A stretch of DNA of 56,803 bases from an uncultured Dehalococcoidia bacterium (GCA_964418365.1 CAYQLM010000002.1:40555-97357); one strand, 5' to 3'; counted from the first letter of the stretch, positions 91 to 22,608 are shown. The notes: generated by a model from the letters alone, not told the origin. A program made the numbers and translations.

Positions 91-519
91 CCCACGGGGA
101 CGCGTACGCCCACCGCCACTGTGCCAACCAACACGAGAACGAACACGCCGGCAAACACGCGCACCCCAACCCGCACATCAACGCCGCAAGTGGCGACTCA
201 AGTGCCTACGAACACGCCGACGAACACGCCTACGGCGACGAGTACGCAGCTGCCAGCGACAGTCGTGCCGACGAATACCCCAACCAACACACCCACGAAC
301 ACGCCGACGAGCACGCCTACAAGAACGCCGACGCCCATTTCGCAGGTGCTGCCCACCGTGCGGCCGCCGACGCCTCGCCCAACCCTAGCCCCTCCCGTGC
401 TCCCGCGCTCTGGCTACGGTGGCACGTCCGGTGGCGCCGGCTCAACGTGGCTCGGACTTGGTCTGCTCGGCTTCGCCCTGGCGGCCCTCGGTTGCTGGCG
501 CTGGCGGCTGTCCAAGTAG
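1..519 (+). CDS. 3' part of a Pro/Thr-rich repeat surface protein (5' end outside window) ending in a hydrophobic helix plus basic tail
   Basis: Frame 1 is open from nt 1. Translation is PT(D/N)T repeats, then ...[29 protein letters not shown]-stop. A hairpin+T5 terminator follows. Confidence 0.6.
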
Positions 520-5335: not shown

Positions 5336-5535
5336 CGCTTCGCGCTGCGGGTGCCGGGTGCTCATCCCAGCCGGCTTCGGCTTACGGCCCTTCACCTACA
5401 CCCCCCTAGCCAATTTCGCGGACAGAAAAATCAGGCCAGCGGGCGGTGTGCGCCGGCCCGAGATCTCCAAAAATATCGACCCCTCCCCCGCACGGAGAGG
5501 CGGTGACACTATTGCCGGATGGTGATGGCTCGCCC

Positions 5536-5563
5536 AAGAAAAAGGCCCTCCTTCAAGAGGGCC
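5536..5563 (-). terminator. Rho-independent terminator for the DUF3303-like gene
   Basis: On the minus strand: GGCCCTC-ttgaag-GAGGGCC followed by TTTTT. Confidence 0.65.
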
Positions 5564-5687
5564 ACGGTGGGCACGAGATCCGCGCTAGGCGGAGGGCACG
5601 AAGGCCACGAAGCGGCTTCCCTTAGTCTAGCACAGCCGCCACGTGCCAGACTCCAATCGAATTCTTCGCGCTTTCGCCAGTCGGCGG

Positions 5688-5984
5688 CTACTTGATGGAG
5701 TCGCGCCAGGCGAAGGCTTTCAGGGTAACAGGCACCGACTCTGCGATGTCCACGCAGGGTTCAGAGTCGAAGTCAAGATGCGGGCCCCAAGGAGCCATTG
5801 CCTCGAGGACGACGAGAGCGGAGTCGGCCTCGACGATGGCGATGCCTCTACCGCTGCCGGTCACGTAGTGGGCCTTGAACACGAAGCCCTTCGGCGGCGT
5901 CCAATTGGTGAAAAGGTTCAAGCTCCGCTTTTCGCTCTCCTCGGTAGCGTTGTCCTTGGCCTTGTAGGTAACTGCCAGTAACAT
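5688..5984 (-). CDS. Small DUF3303-like protein
   Basis: 98 aa, MLLAVTYKAKDN...FTNWTPPKGFVFKAHYVTGSGRGIAIVEAD...LDFDSEPCVD pattern. AGGAAGAAGG RBS upstream. Confidence 0.65.
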   Translation of the reverse strand: MLLAVTYKAKDNATEESEKRSLNLFTNWTPPKGFVFKAHYVTGSGRGIAIVEADSALVVLEAMAPWGPHLDFDSEPCVDIAESVPVTLKAFAWRDSIK

Positions 5985-6093
5985 GGGTCCTTCTTCCTTT
6001 CGATGCTATTCCTTGCCGAACGCCGGATAGTCTAGCAAGCGGTGCTGCGTATGAACAGGGTGTGACCCTAACACGGAGCCACGTGTTCGACAT

Positions 6094-6215
6094 GTCAGCC
6101 TTTCGGCGGCGCCGGGTTCCTCGGCTTGCACCGTCCACACTTGATGTCCCAGTCGCGTCATCGCTTCGGCCAGCTTCCTGCGGCAGTGCCAACAGCGCGG
6201 CGCGCGCTCTGTGGC
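6094..6215 (-). pseudogene. Com-like CxxC...CxxC zinc-ribbon micro-ORF, apparently frameshifted
   Basis: Minus strand reads ..ERAPRCWHCRRKLAEAMTRL then, after a +1 shift, DIKCGRCKPRNPAPPKG-stop. Parallels the intact copy at 10347..10496. Confidence 0.4.
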
Positions 6216-6446
6216 GGCGCCATCACGATGGCGAGATGGTGTGGCCGTAGGCGCTCGGACTGCCGCACTCCAGCAACTGGCGGCAGATAGCAGAAACCGC
6301 GAGCTGGGGGAGCCAAACTCGCGGTGCCGCTGCGTTGTCGCTGTGTGGTAAGAGGTTCGACTCCAGTATCGCGCGTAGCTGTTATGAGGCTATGCCACGG
6401 TTGTCAAACATCTGTTAACCCTGAGCAGACCAGGCGGCTCCCGGTC

Positions 6447-6624
6447 TAGGGAGGATTGGGAATCGACTTCGGCTTCATATGCTGCGCGATTTCACGAGCC
6501 ACTAGCGGCCCCGATCCCAGTGGGGTTCAAATCGGACCAAACTGCATCACGAGCGCCGCGTGGTCGCGCTCGAAAGCCGCCGCCTCGGGGCCCCACTATG
6601 TGCCGATAGCGACGGCCCGGGCGC
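6447..6624 (-). repeat. Repeat R1 (~165-180 nt element, family R)
   Basis: Shares blocks with R2 and R3 (minus strand): GGAGCGCCC.., CTATCnnCACATAGTG, GCAGTTTGGTC, GCCTAGyGnCTCGTGAAATyGCGCAGCAyATGA. Confidence 0.7.
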
Positions 6625-6816
6625 CTAATGCCACCCGCCACGCCCACTGTGCGTGCCCGCGATTCCAACGCACTGCCCACAGACCGTCCCGCGGCCGCGC
6701 TTCGCTTCCTGGGAATCGAGTTCTGGATCTCTGGACGGCGCAAGTCGTGACTGCCGCAGCGTCATATGCCGCGCGATTTCACGAGCACTAGGCGACCGAA
6801 CATGCAGCCAACCCAA
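6625..6816 (-). pseudogene. Remnant of the small CxxC/RGRG ORF (paralog of 10113..10334), N-terminus replaced by repeat R2
   Basis: C-terminus ..LAPSRD...AKRGRGTVCGQCVGIAGTHSGRGGWH aligns with ..LAPACPRW...FKRGRGTVCGLCVKIAGYHRGRGGRH. Confidence 0.4.
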
Positions 6817-6923
6817 TTTCGACCAAACTGCGCTGTTAGGCCTCCCGTGCAGCCGCCCCGGTGGCCCTCCCTCTGGCCATCGCTATGGCCTGATAGTGCG
6901 AAGCGCCCCCGAAGGGGCGCTCC
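6762..6923 (-). repeat. Repeat R2 (family R), directly downstream of the 900-aa gene
   Basis: Same conserved blocks as R1/R3. Contains the perfect hairpin AGCGCCCC-cgaa-GGGGCGCT. Confidence 0.7.
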
Positions 6924-6946: not shown

Positions 6947-9649
6947 CTATCCGATGATGATGCAGGACGACGCCGGCCGTCCGAACTGAACGTAGTGCAC
7001 ATCGACATTTGGCGACCCGCTTCTGAGGCCGTAGCCGAACGCCGCGAACATGTTCCCGGGATCAGCTTCCGTGGGAGCTGCCTTCCGGATCGTCACGTAA
7101 TCGCCAAAGCGGTTTGTGCCAACGTTGCTGTTCGTCGTGATCCAGGCGATGAAGTCTCCCCAGAAGCCGACGACGTGGTTCTCGTAGTTGCCGCCGCCTC
7201 CGAATTCGAAGGACATGCCGACTTCGTTCGTGCAGGCGTTCGTAGAGAGAGACGGGTACGCGAATGCGTAGTCCGGGTTCCAGACCTGCACTTGCTGAAT
7301 CTTGTCGAAGTCGTCATTGCGGTCGAAGACGGCGATCTCGATGTGGGCCTGCGGGAGGTTGGTGTCCGTGCCGGCCGACCAGGCAAACCAGAGCTGGTTG
7401 CCGACGCGGGTTCCTCCGATGATCGCGTTGCCCGGGAAGGCACCGCCCCCTGTGGCGCCGCTGAAGTTCTTGCCCAACCAGTCCTGCCCGTCGGGCGTGA
7501 GCGATGTGGGGGAATTGTTCGCCCAACTCGAAATGCCCCGGTCGCGCCAGAAGTAGGTATTGGAATCCTCGCGCAGCGAGAAGATGCGCACGTTCTTGTT
7601 GTTGTTGTGACCGGCCCAGAAGACCTCGTTCCTCGTGTCATGCATGATGTGGCTGCCCCACGGTGTGCCGTTCGCCGGATCCGTGAACTCCACCGTGACG
7701 GTGCCCCCGGCCTGGAGGCCGGCCAGGGAAATACGCGCGACCTGGAAGCCGGCGTTGCAGCCGGCCGCGCAGGGGAAGCCGGCATCCCAGCTCATGTACA
7801 GGAAGTTGTTGCCAAGGGACATTTCCGGGTAGTCGAACCCTGTGCCAACCGGCTGACCGAAGAGCTGGGCCGTGAGGTTCCAATACGTCCAGGCCGTACC
7901 GTTGCTGCTAATGATGCTGGCCGGACTGGCCATCGCAAGCCGGTAGCCGCGGTTCCCCTGGATCAACCAGAAGAAGCGATCGATGCTGGGGGCGTATTGG
8001 ACGACTTGATCGCAGCAGAACCCGACCTTGTCGTTGGGGAAGATGGTGGTCGCATTGATCTGCGTGAAGTTCACGCCGTTGGTTGAAAAGGCCGCACTGG
8101 TCGTGTTCGCCGTGGCGAAGACCACGCCGCCGCCGCTGACGTCGCCGCTCGGCTCCGCGATCGTATTGAGTCCGGTCATTCCGACGCTGTTGTTGGCGTT
8201 GAAGACGATGGGCGCGGCGCCGGCAGCACCTCCCTCAGCGGAGGTGCCTCCTCCACCGCCGCCCGAGGTGTCGATGATGGTGGAGCCCGGCGGCGGGCCG
8301 CCTGGCTCGAAGGGAGCCGTCGGCACGAGGCCACGCGGCGGGTTAAGGCCCTCCTCACCCGTTGGCAGCGGCGGGAACGGAGCATCCGTGATGAAGTTGG
8401 ACGGCACCTCTATCGAGCTCAATGTGTCCGAACCAGGCGCCGCCGGCGGGACACGCACTTTGACCTCCAGCCGGAAGCAGAAGAACGTGTCGCCGGCCAA
8501 GTACCTCCCTTCAATGGTGAGCAGATAGCTCCCCAACGGTTCGAACGACCCTGCGAATTGGGCTTGCAAGGCGCCCTGCGTCTCCGAGGGAATATCGCCC
8601 AGGCTAAAGGGCAATGATGCGGGGACGACTCGCGCTCCGGTACTCAGTGCGACCTGAGTGAGCGTTACGTCCTCAGCCGAGAGAGGTCCTGGATTGAGGA
8701 TTGGGAGGGCAACCAAAAGTGTGGAGGGGTCCAAGAGATTGACGCCTGGGTACCCCGCGATCAGCATGCTACTTGACACGCAGCTCTTCGGGTTGACCGG
8801 GTCCTGGGCGGGGTGCGGTCGCTTGCACGTACTGCCGTGCCGGCCGAACACGGTCTGCAGATCCTTCGCGTCGATGTCGCCGTCGCCGAGTTTGGGCGAG
8901 CTCGGCTCGAGGTCGTAGCGGCTGTTGTAGAGGAGCTGACCTTCGTGTGAACCCCAGCGGAACGCAATCTGCTGCTGATCGATGACGTCAACGCGGCAGT
9001 CGGCGTGAATATCGCCTTCCAGATAGCGGATGGTGATCGAAGTGTCGCCGCAGGGATCGATGATCCCACCAGCATCGTTCAGCGGGATGGGGTGGCCCTG
9101 GAGGTCCGAAAGCTGGCAGTCCTGATTCAGGAGTTCGGTAAGGACACCGTTGTCCTGGCTCGCGATCAGTTTGGAATAGACGTCAGGTTGGGCGCGCACG
9201 CGCACTTTAGCGAGCGAGCCGGGCCCTCTTGGCGCGTCGGTCGGCTTACCTTTCGTAACGCAACGGAAGTTCACGGATCCCTCACTTCGAAGGGATTCAC
9301 AGCTAACCTCGGGCCGGTTGAAGAGGTCGCCGGCTGACACGTCGACGCTGACAAGCTTGGTGTCGTAACGGACTTCGAACTCGAATGAACCGATGCTCTG
9401 TGGTTCGCCCTTAGCGGTACTGTCCACAGTGCCGCGCAGCTCGACGTCGAAGTTCACTTCTTCGACGCCGCTGGCCTTGTTGTGACAAGCTTCCGTGTCT
9501 TCCGTGCACAGCCAGAGGTTCGCCAGGCGCGGAGTCTTGACAACGTGGAGCTCGCCGACTTCGTCAGGTTCTCCGGCGGATGCACCCACTGAGGCCAGTC
9601 CACCAAGAATCAGCGTGAGAGCTAATAGAGTAAGTACGCGTCGTAACAT
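6947..9649 (-). CDS. Secreted 900-aa protein: signal peptide, cohesin-like module, dockerin-like module, Gly/Pro linker, large C-terminal beta-rich domain
   Basis: MLRRVLTLLALTLILGGLASVGASA signal. IGSFEFEVRYDTKLVSVDVSAGDLF...GSLAKVRVRA (cohesin-like, about 9185-9550). GDIHADCRVDVIDQQQ...GDGDIDAKDLQTVF (dockerin-like, about 8825-9025). GGGGGTSAEGG linker. Confidence 0.8.
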   Translation of the reverse strand: MLRRVLTLLALTLILGGLASVGASAGEPDEVGELHVVKTPRLANLWLCTEDTEACHNKASGVEEVNFDVELRGTVDSTAKGEPQSIGSFEFEVRYDTKLVSVDVSAGDLFNRPEVSCESLRSEGSVNFRCVTKGKPTDAPRGPGSLAKVRVRAQPDVYSKLIASQDNGVLTELLNQDCQLSDLQGHPIPLNDAGGIIDPCGDTSITIRYLEGDIHADCRVDVIDQQQIAFRWGSHEGQLLYNSRYDLEPSSPKLGDGDIDAKDLQTVFGRHGSTCKRPHPAQDPVNPKSCVSSSMLIAGYPGVNLLDPSTLLVALPILNPGPLSAEDVTLTQVALSTGARVVPASLPFSLGDIPSETQGALQAQFAGSFEPLGSYLLTIEGRYLAGDTFFCFRLEVKVRVPPAAPGSDTLSSIEVPSNFITDAPFPPLPTGEEGLNPPRGLVPTAPFEPGGPPPGSTIIDTSGGGGGGTSAEGGAAGAAPIVFNANNSVGMTGLNTIAEPSGDVSGGGVVFATANTTSAAFSTNGVNFTQINATTIFPNDKVGFCCDQVVQYAPSIDRFFWLIQGNRGYRLAMASPASIISSNGTAWTYWNLTAQLFGQPVGTGFDYPEMSLGNNFLYMSWDAGFPCAAGCNAGFQVARISLAGLQAGGTVTVEFTDPANGTPWGSHIMHDTRNEVFWAGHNNNKNVRIFSLREDSNTYFWRDRGISSWANNSPTSLTPDGQDWLGKNFSGATGGGAFPGNAIIGGTRVGNQLWFAWSAGTDTNLPQAHIEIAVFDRNDDFDKIQQVQVWNPDYAFAYPSLSTNACTNEVGMSFEFGGGGNYENHVVGFWGDFIAWITTNSNVGTNRFGDYVTIRKAAPTEADPGNMFAAFGYGLRSGSPNVDVHYVQFGRPASSCIIIG

Positions 9650-9823
9650 GGTTCCGTCCCTCCTTGAACCTTTGGCTAGGAAGCCTCAATGAACTGCGTC
9701 AGCGACTAGATCGTGGCCCGTGTTGTCTCCATGCCTAGGCCAAGAAACGCGCCGCCGTCCGTCTGCGTCCGGACGCTCGTTCGAAGAGCGAGCCGCAACG
9801 GGAGAGTGCCACCGGACGCAGCT

Positions 9824-9851
9824 AGTCTATCACCGGGAGCTAGATTGTCAA
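9824..9851 (-). promoter_or_regulatory. Sigma70-type promoter TTGACA-16-TAGACT for the 900-aa gene
   Basis: Minus strand: TTGACAatctagctcccggtgaTAGACTagctgcgtccGGTGGCAC. Confidence 0.55.
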
Positions 9852-9948
9852 GAGGTGAATGTCGACTGAGAAGTCACCTGAGCCTGCAATCTGCGTCCAG
9901 TGGCAGGGCGATTGGCCGGCTGTTGAGGGGGCCTTTCGCCAAGCGTCT

Positions 9949-10112
9949 TAGGGCAAGGATCGAATTCGCTCTCATGTGCTGCGCAATTTCACGAGTCGCT
10001 AGGCGACCTCGACTCCCGCGCCCTCAGAACCGACCAAACTGCGGCCGCGAGACGCCGACCGGTCCGCCGCGCGGGCGTCACTATGTGTTGATAGGAACGG
10101 CCGGGGCGCTCC
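9949..10112 (-). repeat. Repeat R3 (family R), downstream of the 73-aa ORF
   Basis: Same conserved blocks as R1/R2. The variable segment forms GACGCC-N17-GGCGTC. Confidence 0.7.
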
Positions 10113-10334
10113 CTAGTGCCGTCCGCCACGCCCGCGATGGTAGCCGGCGATCTTGACGCACAGCCCGCACACGGTCCCGCGGCCGCGCTTGAACTGCGCT
10201 GCCGGCATCTCTTCGAACGTCGCCCTGTCCTTCGGCCAGCGCGGGCATGCGGGCGCGAGGTGCCAGTCGTCGCGCGCGTCGCGGCGGCGGAGGACCATTG
10301 GCGGGTTCGGCATGAGGGCGACGCTACCAGCCAC
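10113..10334 (-). CDS. Small 73-aa Cys/Arg/Gly-rich protein (CPRW...RGRGTVCGLCVKIAGYHRGRGGRH)
   Basis: GVG-type (GTG) start 9 nt after the Com-like ORF stop. C-terminal half conserved in the remnant at 6625..6816. No family recognised. Confidence 0.4.
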   Translation of the reverse strand: MAGSVALMPNPPMVLRRRDARDDWHLAPACPRWPKDRATFEEMPAAQFKRGRGTVCGLCVKIAGYHRGRGGRH

Positions 10335-10346
10335 AATCGCGATCTA

Positions 10347-10496
10347 CTAGTCACTGGCGGCACTGGCGTTGCGGGCCTTGCACCTGACGCATCGGATTAC
10401 CCAGGGCCGGGCCACCGATTCGGCCAGCTTCTTGTTGCACTTCCAGCAGCGCGGCTCGTAGTCTACCCGCAGAGGTGATTCGGTTTGCGCCGTCAT
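10347..10496 (-). CDS. 49-aa Com-like zinc-ribbon protein
   Basis: MTAQTESPLRVDYEPRCWKCNKKLAESVARPWVIRCVRCKARNASAASD. CxxCNKxL-N11-IRCxRC spacing resembles phage Mu Com. Below the 60-aa cutoff of the ORF track. Confidence 0.5.
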   Translation of the reverse strand: MTAQTESPLRVDYEPRCWKCNKKLAESVARPWVIRCVRCKARNASAASD

Positions 10497-10559
10497 CGCG
10501 CCGCAGCCCCGGCCACGGAACCAAGTTCCAGCACCAGACCTACTACGGGATGTTCCACA

Positions 10560-11705
10560 GTCGACACGGATGGTGGGTCAAGGCACGGCGCGTGGACGCT
10601 CGCCGAGCTGGGGCTGCGCTACATTGGAGACCGGCGGGATATCACCTGGGCGTCGCTGCAAGCGTATGATCTCCAGCGCCGCGGCGTTGCCGATCCCGAC
10701 CGGATTGGAATGTGGGTTGTTAGCCCCGAGGCCCACGAGGTGTGGCAGGTCGTTGAAGCTCTGCCCCCTGACCAGCGTGCAGGCTTGTGGGGCGAGCCGC
10801 CTTCGTCCAGAGACGACATCTTTACCCGCTTCGGGGCTGACCCGGTCGCACTAACGCTCCTCGCGGGTGAATACCGGCGCGGCATCCTGCTCTGGCAAGA
10901 GCAAGCGGAGCGAGCTGAACAACAAGGACAGATCGCCGGCGCCCTCGACGCCTGGGCTAACCTGGCCCGCTGCCACACCGCCCTGGGGGACTTCGCGGCA
11001 GCACGGGCGGCGTACCGGCAGGGAAGAGCGCTCGCTGCGCGGTTGCCACAAGGGTCAACTGCCCCGCTCCTGCTATGGTCTCCGAGGTACGATCGGAGGC
11101 TGGCCGTCGATGAGGGCTGGCGGGAGTTCCTGGAAGATACCCGGGCCTTCCTGGAGCGGCCGCTCGCTGAAGTCCGGGTTGGCCCCGTTCGCGCAGCCGC
11201 TGCCCTCGCAAGCGCGAGGTTGGGCCGGGCGGAGGAGGCGCTGCACTGGCTCGGCACTCTGATCGCCGGGTTTGAGCGGGGGAGGCCGTCCTGGACGGCC
11301 TACACGCAGGTCGCCTGTGACGCCGCAGCGACCCTCTGGCAACTGGAGCGAACCGACCATATCGAGGTCATCGAGCGCAACCTGCGGGAGAAGGTAATCG
11401 CTCCGGACTTCCGCTATCTGATGCGGGACGGACGCACCGCGCTGGCGCGCCTGTGCGCGCTACAGGGCCGCTACGACGAGGCGAGCCGCTGGTTCGCGGA
11501 GGCGCGCACGGTGCTCGAAGGAGACGGCGCGCGTCCGCTCCGCGCCATCGTCGACTACGACGAGGCGCTGATGTACGTCCGCCGCGCCGCGCCCGGCGAC
11601 AAGGAGCGCGCCGCGCCGCTGCTCGATGCTGCGCTGCGCCAGTTTCGCGAGATCGGCATGACAGGCTGGGTCCGCAGGGCGGAAGAGTTGGCGCAGCACT
11701 CGTAG
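10560..11705 (+). pseudogene. Cyclase-NTPase-TPR copy 1, C-terminal TPR fragment
   Basis: From ..GLRYIGDRRDITWASLQAYDL to the stop it is collinear with residues about 730-1095 of copy 2. The N-terminal ~25 aa of ORF 10485..11705 are not homologous. Confidence 0.75.
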
Positions 11706-11728
11706 GGACAGATCTTTAGCTCTGTCCG

Positions 11729-11795
11729 GACACTCGCTCGTCTCCGGCGGCCTCATGCTCCTCACCGAGGCCGCCTGGCGCGAGGAAGACCAGCG
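11729..11795 (+). repeat. Second copy of the 66-nt segment from 3172..3237
   Basis: Identical string, 24 nt after the stop of copy 1. Confidence 0.85.
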
Positions 11796-11862
11796 CGCGT
11801 AATCGTGGTCTGGTATTCTCGGCGCTGGCATGGCTGGCGAGGCCAGCGGGGCCGCGGCGGAG

Positions 11863-11871
11863 TGCTATAAT
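11863..11871 (+). promoter_or_regulatory. Extended -10 TGCTATAAT, leaderless-type
   Basis: Identical to 3323-3331. ATG at 11881. Confidence 0.5.
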
Positions 11872-11880
11872 CGCTCCGCC

Positions 11881-14800
11881 ATGAGCACCGAGGGAAGCGC
11901 TACGACGACGACCATCCTCTTCACCGACTTGGTGAACTCCACAGGGCTGCTGCAGCGCGCCGGCGACGAGCGCGCGCAGCGTATCGTACAAGGGCACCAC
12001 AAGCTGCTGCAGGACGCCGTGGCGGCCAACGCCGGGCGGGCCGTGAAGTGGGAAGGCGATGGCCTCATGGCCGCCTTCTTCTCTTCGGCCGACGCCGTGC
12101 GCTGCGCGATCGCCATCCAACAGGGCGGCCGCCGTCCGATCGCTGGTGAACGCCTAGAAGTGCGGGTCGGCCTAAACGTCGGTGAGGCGCTTCATTGGGA
12201 GCAGGACGACTACTTCGGGACGCCCGTGGTAATCGCAGAACGGTTGTGCAAGCGGGGACAGTCGGGTCAGATTCTCTGTAGCGCGCTCGTGGCCGGCCTC
12301 CTGGCGGGTCGCCAAGCGTTCCGCTTCCGCGAGCTGGGCGAGCTGGAGCTCAAGGGCATCGAGGAGCCGGTCGACGCCTGCGAGGTCCTGTATGAGGAGG
12401 ACCAGCCGAGAGCGTTCCTCACCCACACGCCGTTCGTCGGGCGGGCCGAGGAGGTCGCCAGGCTCCACCAGCGACTCGCAGAGGCGCGCGCTGGCCGGGG
12501 CGGGCTGGTCATGCTCGTCGGCGAGCCGGGCATCGGCAAGACGCGGACGGCGGAAGAGTTCTGCGAGGCAGCTCGACAAGACGGCGCCGCCGTCGCCTGG
12601 GGGCGCTGCTACGAAGGCGAGTGGGCGCCCCCCTACGGCCCGTTCGTTGAAGCGATCGAGGACCACGCGCACAGCGCCGGCCCCGACCAGTTGCGTGAGG
12701 ACTTAGGGTATGGCGCCGGGCCCATCGCCCGTCTCGTGCCAGCCATCAGGGAGCGCCTGCCGGACATCCCGGAGCCCGTCGCGATTCAGAGAGACGAGGA
12801 GCGCTTCCGCCAGCTCGACGCCGCCTCGCCGTATGGCATCGCGGCGCCGCTTCAAACGGACGAGGAGCGCTTCCGCCTGCTCGACGCCGTCTCTCAGTTC
12901 TTCATCGCGGCGTCCCAGCGCGCGCCCGTCGTGCTGGTGCTGGACGACCTGCACTGGGCGGACAAGGGAACGGTGGCCATGCTCCGGCACGTTGCCCGCT
13001 TCGCTCCACGCCAGCGCATCCTGCTCCTGGGCGCGTACCGGGACGTGGAGCTCGACCGCCAGCACCCACTCGCCGAAGCCCTGGTCGGGCTGCATCGCGA
13101 GACGAACTACGAGCGCATCCTGCTCAAGGGGCTCGACGTGGGAGAGGTGAGCGAGCTGCTGAACACCATCGCGGAGCAGGACATGCCCCACGGGCTCGTC
13201 GCTGCCATCAGCCGAGAGACCGACGGGAACCCGTTCTTCATCCGCGAAGTGCTGCTGCACCTGGTGGAGACCGGTGCGCTCTATCAGCGCGAGGGCCGCT
13301 GGAGAAGCGACGCCAGGATCGAGGAGCTGGGCATACCGGAGGGGGTGCGTCAGGTCGTCGGCCGGCGCCTCTCACATCTCTCCACGAACGCGAACCGCCT
13401 GCTCACTGCTGCGTCGGCGTTCAGCGGGGCGTTCCGCTTCGATGTCGCCGCGGGCGTCGCGGGCCTCGATGAGACGGCGGCGCTCGACGCGGTGGACGAG
13501 GCGCTGGCGGCGCAACTGCTACGGCCGGCGGGCGAGCCGGATGCGTGCGACTTCACCCACGCCCTCATCCGGCACACGCTGTACAGCGAGCTGAGCCCGC
13601 CCCGCCAGGTGCGACTTCACCGCCAGATTGCAGAGACGATGGAGCAGGTGTACAGCGACCCTTCCACGGGCTCAGGACGAAGCCAGCTCATACAGCACGC
13701 GGCGGAGCTCGCCTACCAGTACCACCGCAGCTTCACCCTCCCAGGCGCGGAACGCGGCGTCGGCCACGCCATCGCCGCGGCCGACCGCGCGGAGGCGGCC
13801 TTCGCCCACGACGAGACGGTGACGTTCTTGCGCATGGCACTGGAGCTGCTGCCGGAGGAGGACGCTCGGCGTCCGCGCCTCCTCGGCCGCCAAGCACTGG
13901 CCCTCGCCTGGGCGCTCGAGTTCGACGAGGCGTTGGCGGCGGCGCGGCAGGCGGGCGACTTGATCGCAGAGGTGGAGGGTGCGGACGCCGCGGCCGACTA
14001 CCTGGCCGAAGCGGTACGCACGATGCGGATGGCTGGATCCTTGCCCGGCGCCCGGGCGCTCGCCGGGCCGGGGCTGCGCTACGCCGGCGAGCGGCGCGAC
14101 GCCACCTGGGCGTGGCTGCAAGCGTATGATCTCGGGCGCCGCCGCATCGACGATCCCGACCAGACAGGAATGTTCGTTGCTGGGCCCGAGGACCACGAGC
14201 TGTGGCGGGTCCTTGAAGAGCTACCCCCTGACCAGCGTGCAGGCTTAACCGGCCGGCCGCCTTCGTCCAGAGGCGACGTCTTGGCCCGCTTCGCGGATGA
14301 TCCGTTCCAACTGACGTTCCACGCTGGCGAATACCGCCGCGGCCTCCCGCTCTGGCAAGAGCAAGCGAAGCGAACTGAACAACAAGGACGGATCGCCGGC
14401 GCCCTCGACGCCTGGGCCAACCTCGCCCGCTGCCACACCGCCCTGGGGGCCTTTGCGGCAGCACGGGAGGCGTACCGGCAGGGAAGGGCGCTCGCTGCGC
14501 GGTTGCCACAAGGGTCAGCTGTCCCGCTCCTGCTCGCGGCTCCGAGGAGCGAATGGCGGCTGGCCTCCGATGAGGGCTGGCAGGAGCTCCTGGCAGACAC
14601 CCGGGCCTTCCTGGAGCGGCCGCCCGCTGAAGTCCCAACTGCGCTTGGCAGCTTTCGCGCAGCCGCTGCCCTCGCGAACGCCAGGTTGGGCCCGACGGAG
14701 GAGGCGCTGCACTGGCTCGGCACCCTGATCGCCGGGCTTGAGCGGGCGTCGGGCTGGTCGGGCAACTACGTAGCCATCGCCTGTGACGCCGCAGCGACCC

Positions 14801-15168
14801 TCTGGCAACTGGAGCGAACAGACCATATCGAGGTCATCGAGCGCAACCTGCGGGAAAAGGTGGTCGCCCCTGACTTTCGCCACCCGATGCGGGACGGGCG
14901 GCTGGCGTTGGCCCAGCTCTGCGCGCTCCAGGAGCGCTTCGACGAGGCGGTCGAGTGGTTCCAGAAAGCGCGCGACGTGCTGGACGAGCAGGGCGCGCGC
15001 CCGCTACGCGCGATCGTCGACTTCGACGAGGCGCTGATGTACGTCCGCCGCGCCGCGCCCGGCGACACGGAGCGCGCCGCGCCGCTGCTCGATGCGGCGG
15101 TGCGCCAGTTCCGTGAGATCGGCATGACCGGCTGGGTGCGCCGGGCGGAAACGCTCTCGCCTCCGTAG
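11881..15168 (+). CDS. Class III adenylate/guanylate cyclase domain - AAA(P-loop, STAND-like) NTPase - TPR protein (intact copy 2)
   Basis: ILFTDLVNSTGL...WEGDGLMAAF...RVGLNVGEA...GTPVVIAERL (cyclase). LVMLVGEPGIGKTR Walker A and VVLVLDDLHWAD Walker B. Long helical/TPR C-terminus. Start taken at the ATG equivalent to copy 1. Confidence 0.85.
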   Translation: MSTEGSATTTTILFTDLVNSTGLLQRAGDERAQRIVQGHHKLLQDAVAANAGRAVKWEGDGLMAAFFSSADAVRCAIAIQQGGRRPIAGERLEVRVGLNVGEALHWEQDDYFGTPVVIAERLCKRGQSGQILCSALVAGLLAGRQAFRFRELGELELKGIEEPVDACEVLYEEDQPRAFLTHTPFVGRAEEVARLHQRLAEARAGRGGLVMLVGEPGIGKTRTAEEFCEAARQDGAAVAWGRCYEGEWAPPYGPFVEAIEDHAHSAGPDQLREDLGYGAGPIARLVPAIRERLPDIPEPVAIQRDEERFRQLDAASPYGIAAPLQTDEERFRLLDAVSQFFIAASQRAPVVLVLDDLHWADKGTVAMLRHVARFAPRQRILLLGAYRDVELDRQHPLAEALVGLHRETNYERILLKGLDVGEVSELLNTIAEQDMPHGLVAAISRETDGNPFFIREVLLHLVETGALYQREGRWRSDARIEELGIPEGVRQVVGRRLSHLSTNANRLLTAASAFSGAFRFDVAAGVAGLDETAALDAVDEALAAQLLRPAGEPDACDFTHALIRHTLYSELSPPRQVRLHRQIAETMEQVYSDPSTGSGRSQLIQHAAELAYQYHRSFTLPGAERGVGHAIAAADRAEAAFAHDETVTFLRMALELLPEEDARRPRLLGRQALALAWALEFDEALAAARQAGDLIAEVEGADAAADYLAEAVRTMRMAGSLPGARALAGPGLRYAGERRDATWAWLQAYDLGRRRIDDPDQTGMFVAGPEDHELWRVLEELPPDQRAGLTGRPPSSRGDVLARFADDPFQLTFHAGEYRRGLPLWQEQAKRTEQQGRIAGALDAWANLARCHTALGAFAAAREAYRQGRALAARLPQGSAVPLLLAAPRSEWRLASDEGWQELLADTRAFLERPPAEVPTALGSFRAAAALANARLGPTEEALHWLGTLIAGLERASGWSGNYVAIACDAAATLWQLERTDHIEVIERNLREKVVAPDFRHPMRDGRLALAQLCALQERFDEAVEWFQKARDVLDEQGARPLRAIVDFDEALMYVRRAAPGDTERAAPLLDAAVRQFREIGMTGWVRRAETLSPP

Positions 15169-15374: not shown

Positions 15375-17063
15375 ATGACGGCGATCTCGCGCGCGCTCGT
15401 GGCGGTCTCCGAGAGCGTCCGCGTCTGGCCGCGCTGGCTCACCGTCTCGATCGTCATCGGCGTGTTCGTCCTCATCTTCGGCCTGCCTACGATCGTCATC
15501 CCGCTCGCCACCGATCAGGTGCTCTTCGCGATCGGCGCGCGCACGGTCATCGAAGGCCAACAGCTCTATCGCGATTTCTGGGACATCAAGCCGCCGCTGA
15601 TCTACCTGCTCTACGCCGTGCCCCTCTCGATCGCCGGCGTGCACATGGAGGCGGTGCGCGTCTTCGATCTGCTGAACACCGCGCTCGCCATGGCGGCCAC
15701 GTATCTCCTCGCCCGACGCTTCTTCGGCGAACGCGCCGGACTGCTCGCCGCGGTCTTCTACGGCTTCACGTACCTCGCCTGGTCGCCGAACGACGCGCTC
15801 GGCGAGACCGAGAGCTTCATGGCCGCGCCGCTCGCGTTCGCCTTCTGGCTCTACCTCCCCGACGATGCCCGCCGCGACGCGCCGCTGCGCGCCGTCGCCG
15901 CCGGCCTGCTGATCGGCATTGCGTTCGCGCTGAAGACGCCGGCGGTGCTCTTCCTGCTCGGCCTGCCCATCGCGGAGCTCGCGCTTCGCCCGCGCGTGCA
16001 GTGGCGCCGCGAAGGCATCGCTGGGCGGCTCGCGCTCGCGGCGCTCGGCTTCCTCGCGGTGCAGGCCGCGCTCGCTGCCTATCTCGCGACCGCGGGAGCA
16101 CTGCACGACTTCATCGACATCCAGCGCCACTACACGCTGCACTACAACGCGTATCGATTCGCGCCCGGCGGCCACTCTCACGAGCGCTTCCTGCTCGACG
16201 CGACGGGCATCTGGCTCAAGGACGCCGCGTTCCTCACCGTTCCCGCCTTCGCGGGGCTGCTCGCTGCGTTCTTGCGCTCGCGACATGCGCGCGGCGTCGC
16301 GCTGCTCGGGCTGCTTGCGCTGCTCGGTGTCGTCAGCATCTGGTGGCAAGGGAAGATGTTCCAGTACCACTGGCTCGTCGTCATCCCGATGCTGGCCGCG
16401 CTCGCCGGCTTCGCGCTCGACGAAGCCATCGCCGTGTTCGCGCGTCTGCCAAGACAGCAGGCGTTTGGCGCGCTCGCGCTCCTTGCGATCGGTCTGCTCG
16501 CGCTCGCCGAACAGCCGCTCACCAACACGTACGACGAGTACCGGACCTTGATCCGCTACGCCGGCGGCTCGTTCACGCGGCGTCAGGTCGAGGCGAACTA
16601 CTATCCGCTGTACGTCAGCAACCACCAGGTCGTCGATTACCTGCGCGCGCACAGCGCCGCCGGCGACCGCGTCTACGTCTGGGGCTTCTGGCCGCAAGTC
16701 GACTTCTGGTTCGGCCACTCCTTCGATCGCTTCGTCTTCAACTCCGGCCTCCGCGCGACGTGGTCGCCGCAGTCCTGGCGCGCTGAGCTCGTCCGCGACC
16801 TGCGCGCGTCCGCCTCAGGCGGACCGCGCTATATCGCGATCGGCCAGGGCGATATGCAGCCGTGGCTCGTCGGCACGTCGCAGACCTCGCAGCAGGCGCT
16901 CGATAACTTCCCGCAGCTCGCCGCGATCCTCGCTGCGGACTACCGCCCCGTGCTCGATGCCGGCGTCATGGTCCTCTACGAACGCCAGCCGGCGGCGGTA
17001 TGGGCGTGGCCCTTGGCGACTACTCTCATGCCCACCCTCTGTCTCGTCCAGATACATGGGTGA
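15375..17063 (+). CDS. Polytopic membrane glycosyltransferase, GT-C fold (ArnT/PMT-like)
   Basis: 562 aa with many TM helices. YRDFWDIKPPLIYLLY motif typical of ArnT/PMT_2-type enzymes. Confidence 0.6.
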   Translation: MTAISRALVAVSESVRVWPRWLTVSIVIGVFVLIFGLPTIVIPLATDQVLFAIGARTVIEGQQLYRDFWDIKPPLIYLLYAVPLSIAGVHMEAVRVFDLLNTALAMAATYLLARRFFGERAGLLAAVFYGFTYLAWSPNDALGETESFMAAPLAFAFWLYLPDDARRDAPLRAVAAGLLIGIAFALKTPAVLFLLGLPIAELALRPRVQWRREGIAGRLALAALGFLAVQAALAAYLATAGALHDFIDIQRHYTLHYNAYRFAPGGHSHERFLLDATGIWLKDAAFLTVPAFAGLLAAFLRSRHARGVALLGLLALLGVVSIWWQGKMFQYHWLVVIPMLAALAGFALDEAIAVFARLPRQQAFGALALLAIGLLALAEQPLTNTYDEYRTLIRYAGGSFTRRQVEANYYPLYVSNHQVVDYLRAHSAAGDRVYVWGFWPQVDFWFGHSFDRFVFNSGLRATWSPQSWRAELVRDLRASASGGPRYIAIGQGDMQPWLVGTSQTSQQALDNFPQLAAILAADYRPVLDAGVMVLYERQPAAVWAWPLATTLMPTLCLVQIHG

Positions 17064-17466: not shown

Positions 17467-18558
17467 ATGACTGAGACACGTAAGCACAGTTGGCAATCGT
17501 TCAAGCTACGTTCCTGGCAGTTGGCGGCGCTGGGAGTGGCCGTCCTCATGGCGCTGATGGCGGGCATCGCGAGCGCTGACACGAACACCATCAACTTCGA
17601 GACGTACAGCCTCGGCACTGTTGACGGACAGGACGGTTGGGTCAGCACCGGGTCCGTTGGCGGTGGCTGTGCAATGTACGACGTAGAGGTCGACAGCAGC
17701 TTCGGCTATGGTACGTTTGGTACCAAGAGCCTGCGGATTTCCAATGCCGCAACGAGCGGCTGCTTTACCGACCAGACCTACTCCAAGTCCCTGGTAGACG
17801 AAGCCGGGGAGGCTGCAGCGGTAAACGGCGGCTTCTCGGGTGGGACCAGGCAGTCGCACTTCGAAGCTGCGTGGGACTTCGCCTCGACGGTGCCGGGAGC
17901 CGAGCAGCCGGGCCTGCAGGTCGTGGCCAGCCCGGACCGCGGCGACGGCGCGCGTATGAGCTATATCCGGATGACGGACAAGCCATCCGGTTTGGGAGTC
18001 GACTTCATTGACTACCAGTCGGGCGTCAATGTAGTGGGCTGTGGAGACAATTTCGTCGAGACCAACGCCGTGAGTGGCCTGGACAGGACCGTGCCCCACA
18101 CGATCAAGGTGACCATGGACTTCAAGCCCGGTCCGGGTCCGGCCTACGCGGACGACGTTAAGGTCTACGTTGACGGCGTGCTCAAGATCAACAAGCGCAC
18201 AAGTTGGGAGGACTACTTCCGTGAGTGCCAGGACGGCACGACGCGCACAGTCGACTCCCTCCTCTTCCGTGTCGCCGGCACGAACGCTCCCGCTACTGCG
18301 GGTAACGGCTTTGTGATCGACAACCTGACGCTAACGTCACGTGCGTCGCAGGCGGGCGACGCCAAGCCGACCAACACGCCCACGGCGACGCCCACGCCCC
18401 AGGGGCCCGTGGGCGGCATCTCCCTCGATCCGGGCGTGGGCGGCTCGTCCGGCAGCGACGCCTGGCTGCTCCTTACGGCGGGCCTCGCAGTCATCACCGC
18501 GAGCGCACTTGCCCTCGGTGGTGGTGCGTGGTACGTGCGGAGGCGGCGCGTGCAGTAG
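17467..18558 (+). CDS. Secreted beta-sandwich (LamG/lectin-like?) protein with PT linker and C-terminal VGGISLD-TM-RRRR signal
   Basis: ATG preceded by a G8 tract. Signal LAALGVAVLMALMAGIASA. Tail ..[63 protein letters not shown]. Confidence 0.75.
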   Translation: MTETRKHSWQSFKLRSWQLAALGVAVLMALMAGIASADTNTINFETYSLGTVDGQDGWVSTGSVGGGCAMYDVEVDSSFGYGTFGTKSLRISNAATSGCFTDQTYSKSLVDEAGEAAAVNGGFSGGTRQSHFEAAWDFASTVPGAEQPGLQVVASPDRGDGARMSYIRMTDKPSGLGVDFIDYQSGVNVVGCGDNFVETNAVSGLDRTVPHTIKVTMDFKPGPGPAYADDVKVYVDGVLKINKRTSWEDYFRECQDGTTRTVDSLLFRVAGTNAPATAGNGFVIDNLTLTSRASQAGDAKPTNTPTATPTPQGPVGGISLDPGVGGSSGSDAWLLLTAGLAVITASALALGGGAWYVRRRRVQ

Positions 18559-18774: not shown

Positions 18775-19404
18775 ATGCGATTGTTCGTTCGCGCCGCCGT
18801 GTTGTTGCTCGCGCTTGGAGTGCTCACCATCCTCTCGCCCGGCGCCTCGCGCGCTTCGACCACGACCGTACCCATGGGCGCGAACACTATCTACGGCCCG
18901 TTCTGGTACTGCGACTCCGCCCACAGCGGCGTCGTCTGCACGACGACGATCACCGTTGGCGATTCCGTGACCTGGCAGAACAACACCATCGCCGCCCACA
19001 CTGTCACCGAGTGCGACGGCTACTGCGGCCCGCCGTACCCGCCGCTTCCCATCTGGGACTCCGGCCTCATCTCGGCCAGCGGGTCGTACACGCGGCAGTT
19101 CAACGTGGTCGGTACGTTCAACTACCAGTGCGATGTGCATCCCACCGAAATGAAGGGCCAGATCGTCGTGCTCGCTGTCGGCCCGACGGCGACGCCGTCG
19201 CCCACGTCGCACACACCGCTGCCGCCCACGCCGACGTTCACGCCGGGGCCGGTCGGTGGAGTGTCGATCGATCCGGCGCTGCCGGCTGGCGGCAACGCGA
19301 GCTTGCACCTTGTGATCGAGCTGCTCGCCGGCGCGACCGCCTTCGCAATGACCATCGCGGGCGCCGCCTGGGCGCGCCGGCGCTGGCCCAGCCGGTCGAC
19401 GTAA
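18775..19404 (+). CDS. Secreted cupredoxin (type-1 copper, plastocyanin/amicyanin-like) with PT linker and VGGVSID-TM-RRR signal
   Basis: GGAGG RBS. Signal MRLFVRAAVLLLALGVLTILSPGASRA. Ligand pattern H...C-x2-H-x4-M (AAHTV...YQCDVHPTEMKG). Tail ..TPGPVGGVSIDPALPAGG...AGAAWARRRW. Confidence 0.8.
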   Translation: MRLFVRAAVLLLALGVLTILSPGASRASTTTVPMGANTIYGPFWYCDSAHSGVVCTTTITVGDSVTWQNNTIAAHTVTECDGYCGPPYPPLPIWDSGLISASGSYTRQFNVVGTFNYQCDVHPTEMKGQIVVLAVGPTATPSPTSHTPLPPTPTFTPGPVGGVSIDPALPAGGNASLHLVIELLAGATAFAMTIAGAAWARRRWPSRST

Positions 19405-19405
19405 G

Positions 19406-20224
19406 ATGATCCGCAAGGCAGCGCTGCCGGCCCTCGCCGTCGTCGGGCTGACAGCCGCCGCGCTCGCCATCGTCCTCTTCGTCACCCGCGGCTCATCGAC
19501 CGAGCCGCTCGCGTCGCACACGGCGGCCATCGTCGACCAGCTCGGCTTCACCGCGCCCGCCCCGGCGTTCGTCGCGGAGGCGACGCGGGCGCTGGAGCAG
19601 GCCGGCTACACGGTCGACTACTTCCCGAGCGAGCAGGTCACGGTCGACTTCTATCGCGAGCTGCCCGCGCGCGGCTACGGCCTGGTCATCGTGCGCGCGC
19701 ACTCAGGCTTCGCGGCGAAAGATGCGTCAACACTGGCAGCCGAACTCGCGAGCCGGGAGGGCGATACGTTCCTCTTCTCTTCGGAGCCCTACAGCGAGGA
19801 CAAGTACACGCAGGAGCAGATCGACCAGCGGCTCGGCGTGGCGGCCTATCTTGACCCCACCGGCGTTCCGGGCGACCCCGAGGCGCTCCTGGCGGCGTTC
19901 AACAGTGCGCCGAGGTACTTTGGCATCAAGCCCAGCTTCATCCAGTCCTCCACGCACGGCCGGTTCGAACGCGCCACCGTCATCCTCATGGGGTGCTACG
20001 GGCTCTCCTCCAATGCCTTGGCGAAGGCGTTCGTAAAGAAGGGGGCGCAGGCCGTCGTCGGCTGGGACGACCTGGTCTCAGCGGGTCACACGGACACCAC
20101 GACCGAACGCCTGCTCACACACCTCCTCGCCGACAACCTCCCCGTCGATGCCGCCGTCGCGCAGACCGCGGCGGAGTCCGGCCCCGACCCGACGTATGGC
20201 GGCAAGCTCACGCTATACCGCTGA
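19406..20224 (+). CDS. N-terminally membrane-anchored protein with conserved-looking His/Cys motifs (VIVRAHSG, STHG, VILMGCYG); candidate Cys hydrolase
   Basis: ATG 1 nt after the cupredoxin TAA. TM helix LPALAVVGLTAAALAIVLFV. Alternating beta/alpha-like pattern. Family not recognised with certainty. Confidence 0.6.
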   Translation: MIRKAALPALAVVGLTAAALAIVLFVTRGSSTEPLASHTAAIVDQLGFTAPAPAFVAEATRALEQAGYTVDYFPSEQVTVDFYRELPARGYGLVIVRAHSGFAAKDASTLAAELASREGDTFLFSSEPYSEDKYTQEQIDQRLGVAAYLDPTGVPGDPEALLAAFNSAPRYFGIKPSFIQSSTHGRFERATVILMGCYGLSSNALAKAFVKKGAQAVVGWDDLVSAGHTDTTTERLLTHLLADNLPVDAAVAQTAAESGPDPTYGGKLTLYR

Positions 20225-20311
20225 TCTCGTTGCTTCCACGCCGACGCAAGCGTAGGGGAGCCTTTCAGGGCTCCCGCTGCCACCCGGGCTAGGCCAGACC
20301 TCCGATCGCCA

Positions 20312-20349
20312 TCACCCCTCTCCATTTGGGAGAGGGGACGGGGTGAGGG
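20312..20349. repeat. REP-like hairpin TCACCCCTCTCC-N-GGAGAGGGG..GGGGTGAGGG
   Basis: Same family at 21038-21079, 53362-53388 and 54003-54075. Confidence 0.7.
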
Positions 20350-20415
20350 CATTCCGGCCCCGACCCCACCTACGGCGGCAAGCTGCCTGTGTACCGCTGA
20401 AGGGCTGTCGTGCGC

Positions 20416-21160: not shown

Positions 21161-22608
21161 TTGGCAAAGCAGCTTTCTGTGCTCATTCTCATCGCGCTGC
21201 TCGCGGCTGGCGTTGCAGAGGTGGAGCCGGCTCGTGCGAACAGCATGGCAGCCGTGTCCGCCGGCGGCGGCCATACGTGCGCCTTGACTACGGCTGGCGG
21301 CGTAATGTGCTGGGGCTTCAACGCCTACGGTCAATTAGGGAACGGCACAAGCGCCGGACCACAAATTTGTGTCAGCGGGCCCTATTCCTATCCCTGCAGC
21401 ACAGTTCCGGTGAATGTCACGGGCTTGAGTGGCGGAGTGACTTCGGTGTCTGCAGGCTCTCAATCGTGCGCCGTTACTTCCGCGGGCGGGGTGAAGTGCT
21501 GGGGTGGGAATTCGAATACTCCAATGGACGTTACCGGGATCGGCGGTGCAGTCGCTATATCGGCTGGTGGGAACCACATCTGTGTTTTGACTAATGCCGG
21601 TGGAGTGAAGTGCTGGGGTTACAACGCGGACGGGGAAGCTGGAAACGGCACGATTACGAATACGGGTTGCTTATGTGTCCTAGCCCCTGGATGTATTGGG
21701 GTTGACCAGTGGCGTTGTGGCCATCTCAGCAGGAGGCGCCCACACATGCGCCGTCACCACGAGCGGAAGCGTCAAATGCTGGGGTTCGAATATCTTTGGA
21801 CAGTTGGGAACCGGCACGTCGACGATAGGTGGGTGCAGCTGCATTCCTACGCCCGTCGATGTTGTTGGTCTGGCGAGCGGTATAGCGGATGTTTCCGCGG
21901 GACCGGCCCACTCGTGTGTGCTTACGAATACACAAGGCGTAAAGTGCTGGGGTTGGAACGCGTATGGCAATTTGGGTGACGGAAGTTTCAACGGTCGCTT
22001 GGCGCCGGTAGATGTGGTTGGGCGTAGCCGCAGTCTCAGCGGGCGGAGAGGTATCGGGAGTCCTACCGTCGCACACCTGCGCCGTAACGACTGGTGGTCA
22101 GGTGAAGTGTTGGGGCGATGGTGCGGAAGGGCAGCTTGGAAACGGCGCGGCCTCGTCGAGCAACGTGCCGGTGGACGTGCAAGGCTTGACCAGCGGCGTC
22201 AGATCAGTGTCAGCTGGAGGACACCACAGTTGCGCCGTGACTACGGACGACATGACGAAGTGCTGGGGTGCTAATCTCTATGGTCAGTTGGGAGATGCGA
22301 CGAGCAGCGGCCCCGAGATCTGCGGCTCAGGCTTTCCCCCTTGCAGCACAATTCCTGTGGATGTACTCGTGGTTGCTAAGATCACGCCGACACCAACCGC
22401 CACCCCGATCGCGCCGACGGCGACGCCCACTGGTACGCCTCAACCGCCCGTCGGCGGCATCTCTATCGATGGCGCCGCCCTCTCGCCCGACCGCACCGGC
22501 TCCCATCGATCTGCCGCCTTCCCGTTCGCCGCGCTCGCGCTCCTGGGTGTAAGCAGCGCTGTCGGCGCGATCTGGTTCGCGAGAAGACGACTACTTCGCT
22601 CTCGTTGA
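21161..22608 (+). pseudogene. RCC1-repeat secreted protein with PT linker and VGGISID-TM-RRR signal; two +1 frameshifts
   Basis: Three overlapping ORFs (21161.., 21696.., 22012..) in three frames all carry ..SAGGxHTCAxT..G.VKCWG.N..GQLG.. repeats. The shifts map to a C4 run (21684-21687) and a G3 run (22020-22022). Confidence 0.7.

Follow-up and report, generated by a model that had tools for sequence, protein, structure and literature searches.

Peptidases of clan CD, which have the caspase-hemoglobinase fold, carry their catalytic His and Cys residues right after hydrophobic strands. Within this clan, GPI8/PIG-K (family C13), of the glycosylphosphatidylinositol (GPI) transamidase, removes a C-terminal signal and transfers its cargo to an anchor, and in DdvA a single transmembrane (TM) helix precedes a CHAT domain located outside the membrane. 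Removal of a C-terminal signal followed by transfer of the cargo to an anchor is also performed by PorU (family C25), the type IX secretion system's sortase (PMC4560394, PMC8545088). The wider panel of sorting systems comprises sortase/LPXTG, exosortase/PEP-CTERM, archaeosortase/PGF-CTERM, rhombosortase/GlyGly-CTERM, and myxosortase/MYXO-CTERM, and the signals combine a motif and a TM helix with an Arg-rich cluster at the very C-terminal end (10.1101/2023.06.07.544157). The present report concerns a gene at positions 19406-20224 (plus strand) of a 56,803-nucleotide stretch of DNA from an uncultured Dehalococcoidia bacterium (GCA_964418365.1, CAYQLM010000002.1:40555-97357); this whole stretch is referred to as the window. 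Based on the open reading frame (ORF), its homologues, an AlphaFold2 model, and Foldseek matches, the product of 272 amino acids (P0001) is predicted to be a membrane-anchored cysteine peptidase-like protein of the CHAT/caspase fold, and it is called the peptidase below.

The peptidase represents an undescribed family of predicted clan CD (CHAT/gingipain/caspase-fold) proteins, and its gene adjoins genes for secreted proteins that share a C-terminal tail containing a VGG motif. We consider it reasonably likely that the peptidase acts outside the cytoplasm, as a Cys-His peptidase or transpeptidase, in the processing of C-terminal signals of the VGG type, and it is the best candidate for a new enzyme that sorts proteins in a sortase-like manner.

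Predicted fold of the peptidase

The initiation codon of the peptidase gene is located at 19406, and the stop codon of the upstream cupredoxin gene occupies 19402-19404, so that a spacer of 1 nt separates the two (TAA g ATG; junction gacgTAAgATGatc), exactly as an earlier note on this DNA had read it. The two genes thus appear to be translationally coupled. The G+C content at third codon positions of the peptidase ORF is 0.89, which, together with the existence of homologues, was counted as a sign of a genuine gene.

The AlphaFold2 model of the window protein had a predicted local distance difference test (pLDDT) score of 88.2 and a predicted template modelling score of 0.82, and a second AlphaFold model, of the divergent member P0037, had a pLDDT of 83.3. 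In the former, a helix at residues 7-27 is followed by alternating β and α elements, in agreement with the single N-terminal TM helix and α/β domain described in the earlier note, and DSSP gave the order β1-α-β2-α-β3-(His)...β4-(Cys)-α-β5-α-α-β6. When both models were compared with the PDB using Foldseek, CHAT-type clan CD proteins came first, namely SAVED-CHAT 8tl0 (E=7.8e-6 for the window model and E=6.9e-7 for the P0037 model), DdvA (8rw5 and 8rot), and Csx29, followed by gingipain R (1cvr), separase, and caspases-1, -3, and -11. The alignments with clan CD peptidases covered 230-260 columns, as against about 160 for flavodoxins. The clan CD fold proposed earlier is therefore supported by the top matches of the models, while the alternative proposed alongside it, a nucleophile-elbow (α/β) hydrolase, had no representative among the matches of either model. 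As modelled, the fold class of the family is clan CD (caspase/gingipain/CHAT-like).

Sequence profiles gave weaker signals in the same region. The scores for Pfam CHAT (PF12770) were below the gathering threshold of 24 bits for the window protein (13.5 bits), the best-scoring member (18.2 bits, E=0.0019), and the family consensus (17.0 bits). Such sub-threshold CHAT matches were obtained for 15 of 42 members and covered profile positions of approximately 212-272 of 289 alone, and sub-threshold Peptidase_C25 matches were obtained for 4 of the 42 (best 12.8 bits against a cut-off of 23). All of the sub-threshold CHAT and C25 matches begin just past Cys197. The window protein and the members had no match to the C13 and C14 models of Pfam at E<=1, and the peptidase matched no sortase model (Pfam PF04203 or NCBIfam), its predicted fold being caspase-like and not the sortase β-barrel. 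Comparison of the family profile with the catalytic domain of RgpB (sequence checked against 1cvr/4ief) using hhalign in global and local modes gave an uninformative probability of 0.08. A profile search of PDB sequences returned two spurious matches alone, to a short-chain dehydrogenase/reductase and an S-adenosylhomocysteine hydrolase, through a GxG-like segment, and a search of all ORFs in the fetched loci with the family hidden Markov model yielded no distant CHAT relative to seed a profile-profile comparison. No Pfam or NCBIfam model reached its threshold for the family. By these profile searches, the peptidase falls outside the present definitions of the sortase, C25, C13, and Pfam CHAT families.

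Predicted active site and membrane topology

Conservation was counted in an alignment of 349 bacterial and archaeal members. R97, H99, and C197 were each conserved in 348 of the 349, D230 in 347 of 348, D44 and W220 in 99%, and H228 in 86%. H99 (codon at 19700-19702, plus strand) lies two residues past the strand 93-97 (LVIVR-A-H99-S-G), and C197 (codon at 19994-19996, plus strand) lies two residues past the strand 191-195 (VILMG-C197). His99 and Cys197 are thus the predicted catalytic dyad in a clan CD arrangement, with Cys197 as the predicted nucleophile. The three motifs that the earlier note had singled out, YGLVIVRAHSG (residues 91-101), SSTHG (181-185), and ATVILMGCYG (190-199), are all present; His184 of SSTHG, being conserved in 26% of the 349 members only, was ruled out as the catalytic His. 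No cofactor-binding motif was seen in the peptidase.

The predicted signal-anchor TM helix of the window protein (residues ~7-27; 19424-19486, plus strand; assigned by DSSP) is preceded by R3 and K4, and its homologues have long Arg/Lys-rich N-terminal extensions before the single TM helix (alignment A1). Because the N-terminus is basic, the positive-inside rule suggests a type II topology, in which the N-terminus is in the cytoplasm and the catalytic domain faces outward. In addition, a subgroup of the family (P0006, P0008, and the protein at 1503-2609 of locus L004) has an added C-terminal segment that consists of a GSSG-like sequence, a TM helix, and YVRRRFRV, an arrangement that agrees with an extracytoplasmic catalytic domain. 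The VGG motif of the cargo proteins would then be on the same side of the membrane as the catalytic domain.

Adjacency of the peptidase and tail-bearing genes

Three proteins encoded in the window end in the same kind of tail, VGG[IV]S[IL]D followed by a TM helix and RRR (gene ends at 18558, 19404, and 22608), which confirms the shared VGGxSxD tail reported earlier; a direct reading of their sequences revealed signal-peptide-like N-termini in all three. In order to examine the distribution of such genes, all stop-to-stop ORFs in 80 genome loci of Chloroflexota and Bathyarchaeia were scanned for a tail consisting of an xGG motif, a spacer, an uncharged helix, and a basic cluster. Up to 500 bp from a peptidase homologue, the frequency of tail-bearing ORF ends was 5.95 per 10 kb; it was 0.64 at 0.5-1.5 kb, 0.39 at 1.5-3 kb, 0.25 at 3-5 kb, and 0.07 at 5-10 kb, which corresponds to an enrichment of approximately 85-fold between the nearest and the farthest intervals. 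When a stricter rule was applied, a cargo gene on the same strand was found immediately upstream of 38 of the 75 evaluable homologues, with gaps of 29-360 nt, and three further upstream cargos recognized by eye (L043, L067, and L074) raised this to ~41 of 75. In Bathyarchaeia, the pairing was observed in seven of nine evaluable loci with a variant tail. The link between the peptidase and a C-terminal signal proposed in the earlier note is therefore borne out in both domains of life as gene adjacency.

Some loci hold more than one copy of either gene. At L007, two tandem peptidase paralogues (9082-9828 and 9884-10648) lie between two cargo genes (8307-8954 and 10764-11552), and at L040 five consecutive cargo genes precede the enzyme gene. 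The globular parts of the cargos are mutually unrelated and include cupredoxin, RCC1, FG-GAP, LamG-like, DUF6345, and unknown folds. All-against-all clustering of the neighbors in the 80 loci gave no other conserved partner family, including any candidate for acceptor synthesis or for a partner subunit. Because the cargo domains are unrelated and no other neighbor is conserved, the tail is the only common denominator.

Features of the VGG tail

The tripartite signal (motif, TM helix, and basic cluster) was found in the three window cargos and in more than 60 proteins of related loci. The tails are approximately 55-65 amino acids long, and VGG and [GD]SSG are their conserved blocks. The consensus of the bacterial tails (alignment A2) is PVGGIxELP and, after 8-12 residues, [GD]SSG; a short stretch leads from there to an Ala/Gly-rich TM helix, which is followed by GGAWYARRRxLR. 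V-G-G, W(-Y), and R-R-R are invariant or nearly so, and nothing else is kept across the tails. The variant of the window lineage is VGG[IV]S[LI]D, which also occurs at L004, whose enzyme is 65% identical to that of the window. The tail of Bathyarchaeia has the form PVGG[IV]xxPVDKLxLLAPYIGL…YVKRVKRRKEKQ. Cleavage after the conserved Asp, as had been suggested in the earlier note, is not supported because that Asp is specific to the window lineage; the acidic residue moves or vanishes among VGGISLD, VGGIAELP, and VGGIxxPVDK. The additional C-terminal segment of the peptidase subgroup described above resembles the membrane-proximal half of the cargo tail. VGG is missing from this segment, which fits the idea that VGG is the processed element.

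Nine tails were scanned against NCBIfam at E<=10. None of the sorting-domain models (GVDTG_CTERM, LPXTG, PEP-CTERM, GlyGly-CTERM, MYXO-CTERM, PGF-CTERM, etc.) reached its cut-off in these nine. The best score was 24.6 bits for GVDTG_CTERM (cut-off, 29 bits); the others were far under their cut-offs, and the archaeal tails matched none of the models.

Family and distribution

One search retrieved 302 homologues at E<=1e-3, each annotated as hypothetical and none with a Pfam domain. An exhaustive profile search gave at least 1,878 clusters at 50% identity, of which 646 had E<=1e-30. The hosts in contigs taken from one genome per species are chiefly Dehalococcoidia and other Chloroflexota, and two to three peptidase paralogues occur in several genomes. 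About ten family loci belong to Bathyarchaeia, including two copies on the complete chromosome CP070759.1. L063 encodes ABCE1/RLI and a TYW2/Trm5-type enzyme, and it is therefore truly archaeal. The bacterial and archaeal enzymes are approximately 50% identical, which points to transfer of the two-gene cassette between the domains.

No description of the family or its tail was found in a literature search on GVDTG, sorting signals of Chloroflexi and Dehalococcoidia, CTERM domains, and caspase-like membrane-anchored enzymes, and tblastn of the family consensus against plasmids gave nothing useful. PADLOC had no match for the family. Two specific identities were examined and ruled out: a defence-system CHAT protein, by the lack of both a PADLOC match and partner domains, and a DdvA-like anti-sigma factor, since the cytoplasmic part is a short basic stretch only.

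Proposed function and alternatives

In the proposed mechanism, the substrates would be exported proteins in which a signal peptide is followed by a globular domain, a Pro/Thr linker, and, at the C-terminus, a long sorting signal. This signal comprises the invariant V-G-G and a spacer of ~10-25 residues that often includes [GD]-S-S-G; an Arg cluster follows an Ala/Gly-rich TM helix whose last residues are W-Y. After Sec-dependent export, the tail would hold the cargo in the membrane with VGG outside and beside the enzyme. The peptide bond attacked by Cys197, with His99 as its activator, would lie at or near V-G-G. This attack would remove the TM anchor, and the acyl-enzyme would be resolved either by water, resulting in release of the cargo, or by a nucleophile of the envelope, as in sortase-like transpeptidation. 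A narrower form of this proposal is put forward only tentatively: the family would be a caspase-fold sortase of Chloroflexota (mainly Dehalococcoidia) and Bathyarchaeia, that is, a true transpeptidase that cuts the VGG signal and covalently attaches surface proteins to an envelope acceptor.

Several observations weigh against processing of the tail by the peptidase. With regard to the fold, the Foldseek template modelling scores were moderate (0.40-0.49) for queries that included the TM helix and disordered N-termini, and flavodoxin-like folds also scored. The spacing between His and Cys is 72-100 residues, which is unusually long for clan CD, as the earlier note had correctly remarked, because of a variable, family-specific insert (residues ~100-182); model confidence is lower around residues 101-120. 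With regard to specificity, the invariant D44 and D230 are at positions that line the S1 pocket in other clan CD enzymes and would suggest a basic P1 residue, and the outer side of the bacterial tails is without any conserved basic residue. Judged by position, D44, R97, and D230 could line the specificity pocket, but their match to a Gly-Gly site is not obvious. With regard to the gene arrangement, ~45% of the homologues lack a neighboring cargo gene. When the tail was used as a profile query, 133 proteins were obtained at E<=1e-3; the matches from named organisms were six from Chloroflexi or Dehalococcoidia and a seventh labelled only 'marine sediment metagenome'. The named taxa of the peptidase and of the tail overlap, both being Chloroflexota/Dehalococcoidia. 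Eight tail loci were then picked independently of the enzyme, and an enzyme homologue was present within the retrieved flanks (<=10 kb per side) of none of the eight, in a sample biased to short gene calls whose contigs were 14-2,175 kb long and in four cases ended within ~1-6 kb on at least one side. One tail locus without a nearby enzyme is in CP070630.1, which has two enzymes elsewhere (L019 and L056). The putative substrates thus seem to be dispersed for the most part, and a cargo gene adjoins about half of the enzyme genes, which resembles the split between housekeeping and pilus-linked sortases. Such a pattern of many substrates and few enzymes is also that of sortases, and in this respect it speaks for the proposal.

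These points give some room to an explanation that we regard as unlikely, in which the family is an active cell-surface clan CD protease with a substrate other than the tail. The neighboring proteins would be matured, shed, or degraded by it at some other site, such as a pro-region or the Pro/Thr linker, or it would have a role in quality control, and another enzyme would handle the VGG tail. The fold and the dyad are equally compatible with such a protease, the VGG scissile site is a proposed one, and, as noted, the invariant D44 and D230 have no obvious fit to a Gly-Gly site. At L063, moreover, an Rce1-like CPBP protease and an M48 (Ste24-like) protease (6008-6712 and 10930-11898) flank the cargo-enzyme pair, and CPBP enzymes are known as sorting proteases, the myxosortases (10.1101/2023.06.07.544157). 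However, the CPBP and M48 genes were seen at this one locus alone, and no second conserved neighbor family was found in the 80 loci. The globular domains and linkers of the cargos are unrelated, and what they have in common is the tail alone, which counts against this reading.

It is quite improbable, in our view, that the protein is not a peptidase, its caspase/flavodoxin-like scaffold performing a different reaction on the cargo (such as thioester formation or the transfer of an acyl group or a lipid) or serving as a non-catalytic receptor or anchor of the tail. This would accommodate the facts that the family is under the threshold of every Pfam peptidase model, that flavodoxins are among the Foldseek matches, and that the dyad geometry is predicted only. 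Nevertheless, the structural matches that rank highest and align over the greatest length all belong to the CHAT, gingipain, separase, and caspase peptidases, and the His and Cys residues that follow consecutive core strands form the sequence signature of clan CD, with no cofactor-binding motif seen. That the adjacency is a by-product of the clustering of surface-protein genes, the peptidase having an unrelated role such as signalling or defence, is in our view very improbable: CHAT domains do occur in defence and signalling systems (8tl0, Csx29, and DdvA are among the matches) and many tail genes are away from an enzyme, but the enrichment drops sharply past 500 bp, keeps strand and order, and holds in two domains of life, and the family has no PADLOC match, no sensor or effector partner domain, and a catalytic domain that would be extracytoplasmic.

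If processing of VGG tails by the peptidase is correct, the signal-enzyme pair would show how cupredoxins, RCC1/FG-GAP propellers, and other surface proteins are displayed in Dehalococcoidia and Bathyarchaeia, which are abundant, mostly uncultured, and almost unknown in their cell-surface biology. The surface proteomes of both lineages would become predictable from sequence, and the clan CD fold, otherwise tied to PorU and the eukaryotic GPI transamidase, would be added to the prokaryotic enzymes of C-terminal sorting. Should the enzyme be a true transpeptidase, prokaryotes would have in it a counterpart of GPI transamidase and PorU, and it might be a new peptide ligase. Protein ligation makes wide use of sortase A and of clan CD transpeptidases (asparaginyl ligases), and a small soluble ectodomain that recognizes VGG could be a further tool of this kind. 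With regard to annotation, the 1,878 or more clusters have no Pfam or NCBIfam model today.

Cargo genes and other features of the window

The first of the three cargo genes (17467-18558, plus strand; tail, 18409-18558) encodes a secreted protein of 363 amino acids with no known domain and the tail PVGGISLDPGVGGSSGSD-TM-YVRRRRVQ. The closest NCBIfam model was GVDTG_CTERM, with 16.6 bits for the protein and 19.0 bits for the isolated tail against the cut-off of 29. The second (18775-19404, plus strand) is the gene coupled to that of the peptidase. Its product, 209 amino acids in the public gene call, is a secreted cupredoxin that has a signal peptide and, after a Pro/Thr linker, ends in the signal PVGGVSIDP...TM...ARRRWPSRST (19252-19404, plus strand); Pfam Copper-bind matched over its gathering score (E=1.6e-4), and the amicyanin/plastocyanin models of NCBIfam matched below threshold. 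The third (21161-22608, plus strand; tail, 22450-22608) encodes an RCC1-repeat protein (Pfam RCC1/RCC1_2) with a signal peptide and the tail PVGGISIDGA...TM...ARRRLLRSR. Its frame is broken twice, resulting in three frames at about 21161-21700, 21700-22010, and 22010-22608. Because the same broken structure recurs in the independent assemblies L001 (5 mismatches in 7.2 kb) and L002 (identical), the breaks probably represent a real pseudogene or a recoding site and not an assembly error.

Immediately upstream of the first cargo gene, a PMT_2/GT87-type membrane glycosyltransferase gene is located at 15375-17063 (plus strand), and a weak PMT_2 gene is present in L092 as well. Pro/Thr-rich linkers precede VGG in all three window cargos. 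Given this neighbor and these linkers, O-glycosylation of the linkers is possible.

Downstream of the peptidase gene, a copy of ~48 nt of its 3' end (83% identical; 20343-20397 versus 20176-20224) includes GPDPTYGGKL.VYR and a stop codon. This copy sits 118 nt downstream of the true stop codon, and the spacer (20225-20342) contains an inverted repeat, cccctctcc...ggagagggg, at about 20310-20335. The same arrangement was found in three more public contigs (L001-L003) from three different samples. The copy may be a relic of replacement of the 3' end or of a small insertion.

A second type of tail, consisting of an LPxxG-like motif, a TM helix, and RLRRRR, occurs in the same genomes and looks like a classical sortase signal. 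Proteins with this tail are encoded at 1-519 (plus strand) of the window and at L007 (4561-5313), L026 (4743-5594), L048 (4946-5725), L065 (6378-7124), and L076 (5714-6529). Several of them form a conserved cluster (10 loci), usually a few kb from the peptidase gene and mostly on the opposite strand, which looked cohesin-like when the sequences were inspected by eye. Dockerin-type repeats are present in or at the end of many secreted neighbors, as at L032, where the ORF ends ~106 nt upstream of the homologue, at L057 and L081, and in the L086 genes at 4880-6895, 10367-11893, and 17478-18197. Together, the dockerin repeats and the possibly cohesin-like LPxTG proteins hint that these Chloroflexota and Bathyarchaeia may have a surface assembly resembling a cellulosome.

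Elsewhere in the window, an Hsp70/DnaK match at 46730-47647 (plus strand) covers profile positions 1-284 of 599, and the next ORF (47706-48578, plus strand) begins 58 nt further on; dnaK may be split or frameshifted here. Two AAA_16 (STAND-type) ATPases are encoded at 3879-5525 and 11830-15168, both on the plus strand, and the larger one combines an adenylate/guanylate cyclase domain at its N-terminus with tetratricopeptide repeats (TPRs) at its C-terminus.

Comparison with known systems

CHAT peptidases (PF12770), represented by 8tl0, DdvA (8rot/8rw5), and Csx29/TPR-CHAT of Craspase, are the top structural matches of both peptidase models. The likeness extends to weak sequence similarity past the Cys residue (...LMGC-G-L...A-AF...GA..VVGW..V.D) and to the positions of His and Cys after hydrophobic strands. 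In contrast to these proteins, the peptidase has a single domain in ~270 amino acids without TPR, SAVED, or anti-sigma modules, and a family-specific insert of 70-100 residues separates His from Cys. In the genome it is partnered by a surface protein whose tail at the C-terminus includes a TM helix, and not by a CRISPR, CBASS, or sigma-factor system.

Among curated signal models, GVDTG_CTERM (NF058571) is the nearest. Its matches take in the Ser-rich stretch, the TM helix, and WYARRR of some tails (24.6, 19.0, and 16.6 bits); however, these scores are under the 29-bit cut-off and the VGG block is outside most of the matches. No paper was found on the GVDTG_CTERM model or its processing enzyme.

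The system resembles the panel of sorting systems in that the cargo carries a motif, a TM helix, and an Arg-rich C-terminal cluster, and in that a membrane-bound enzyme has predicted outward-facing Cys/His chemistry. Some enzyme genes adjoin those of their putative substrates, as is the case for pilus-specific class C sortases, and other putative substrates are dispersed. On the other hand, the peptidase is predicted to be caspase-like, and neither a sortase β-barrel nor a polytopic intramembrane protease, and nothing like it is included in the panel; the VGG signal, a putative one, is longer (~55-65 amino acids) and has two conserved blocks.

PorU and GPI8 resemble the peptidase in the predicted fold and the proposed reaction. 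Gingipain R (C25) is among the Foldseek matches of the peptidase, and the GPI signal likewise consists of small residues, a spacer, and a hydrophobic tail. However, the signal of PorU is a C-terminal β-sandwich domain of ~80 amino acids and PorU belongs to the outer membrane of Bacteroidota, while GPI8 is part of a multi-subunit complex of the endoplasmic reticulum. The peptidase, unlike either of them, is an enzyme of Chloroflexota and Bathyarchaeia with one predicted TM helix, and the tail of its putative substrates ends in an Arg cluster.

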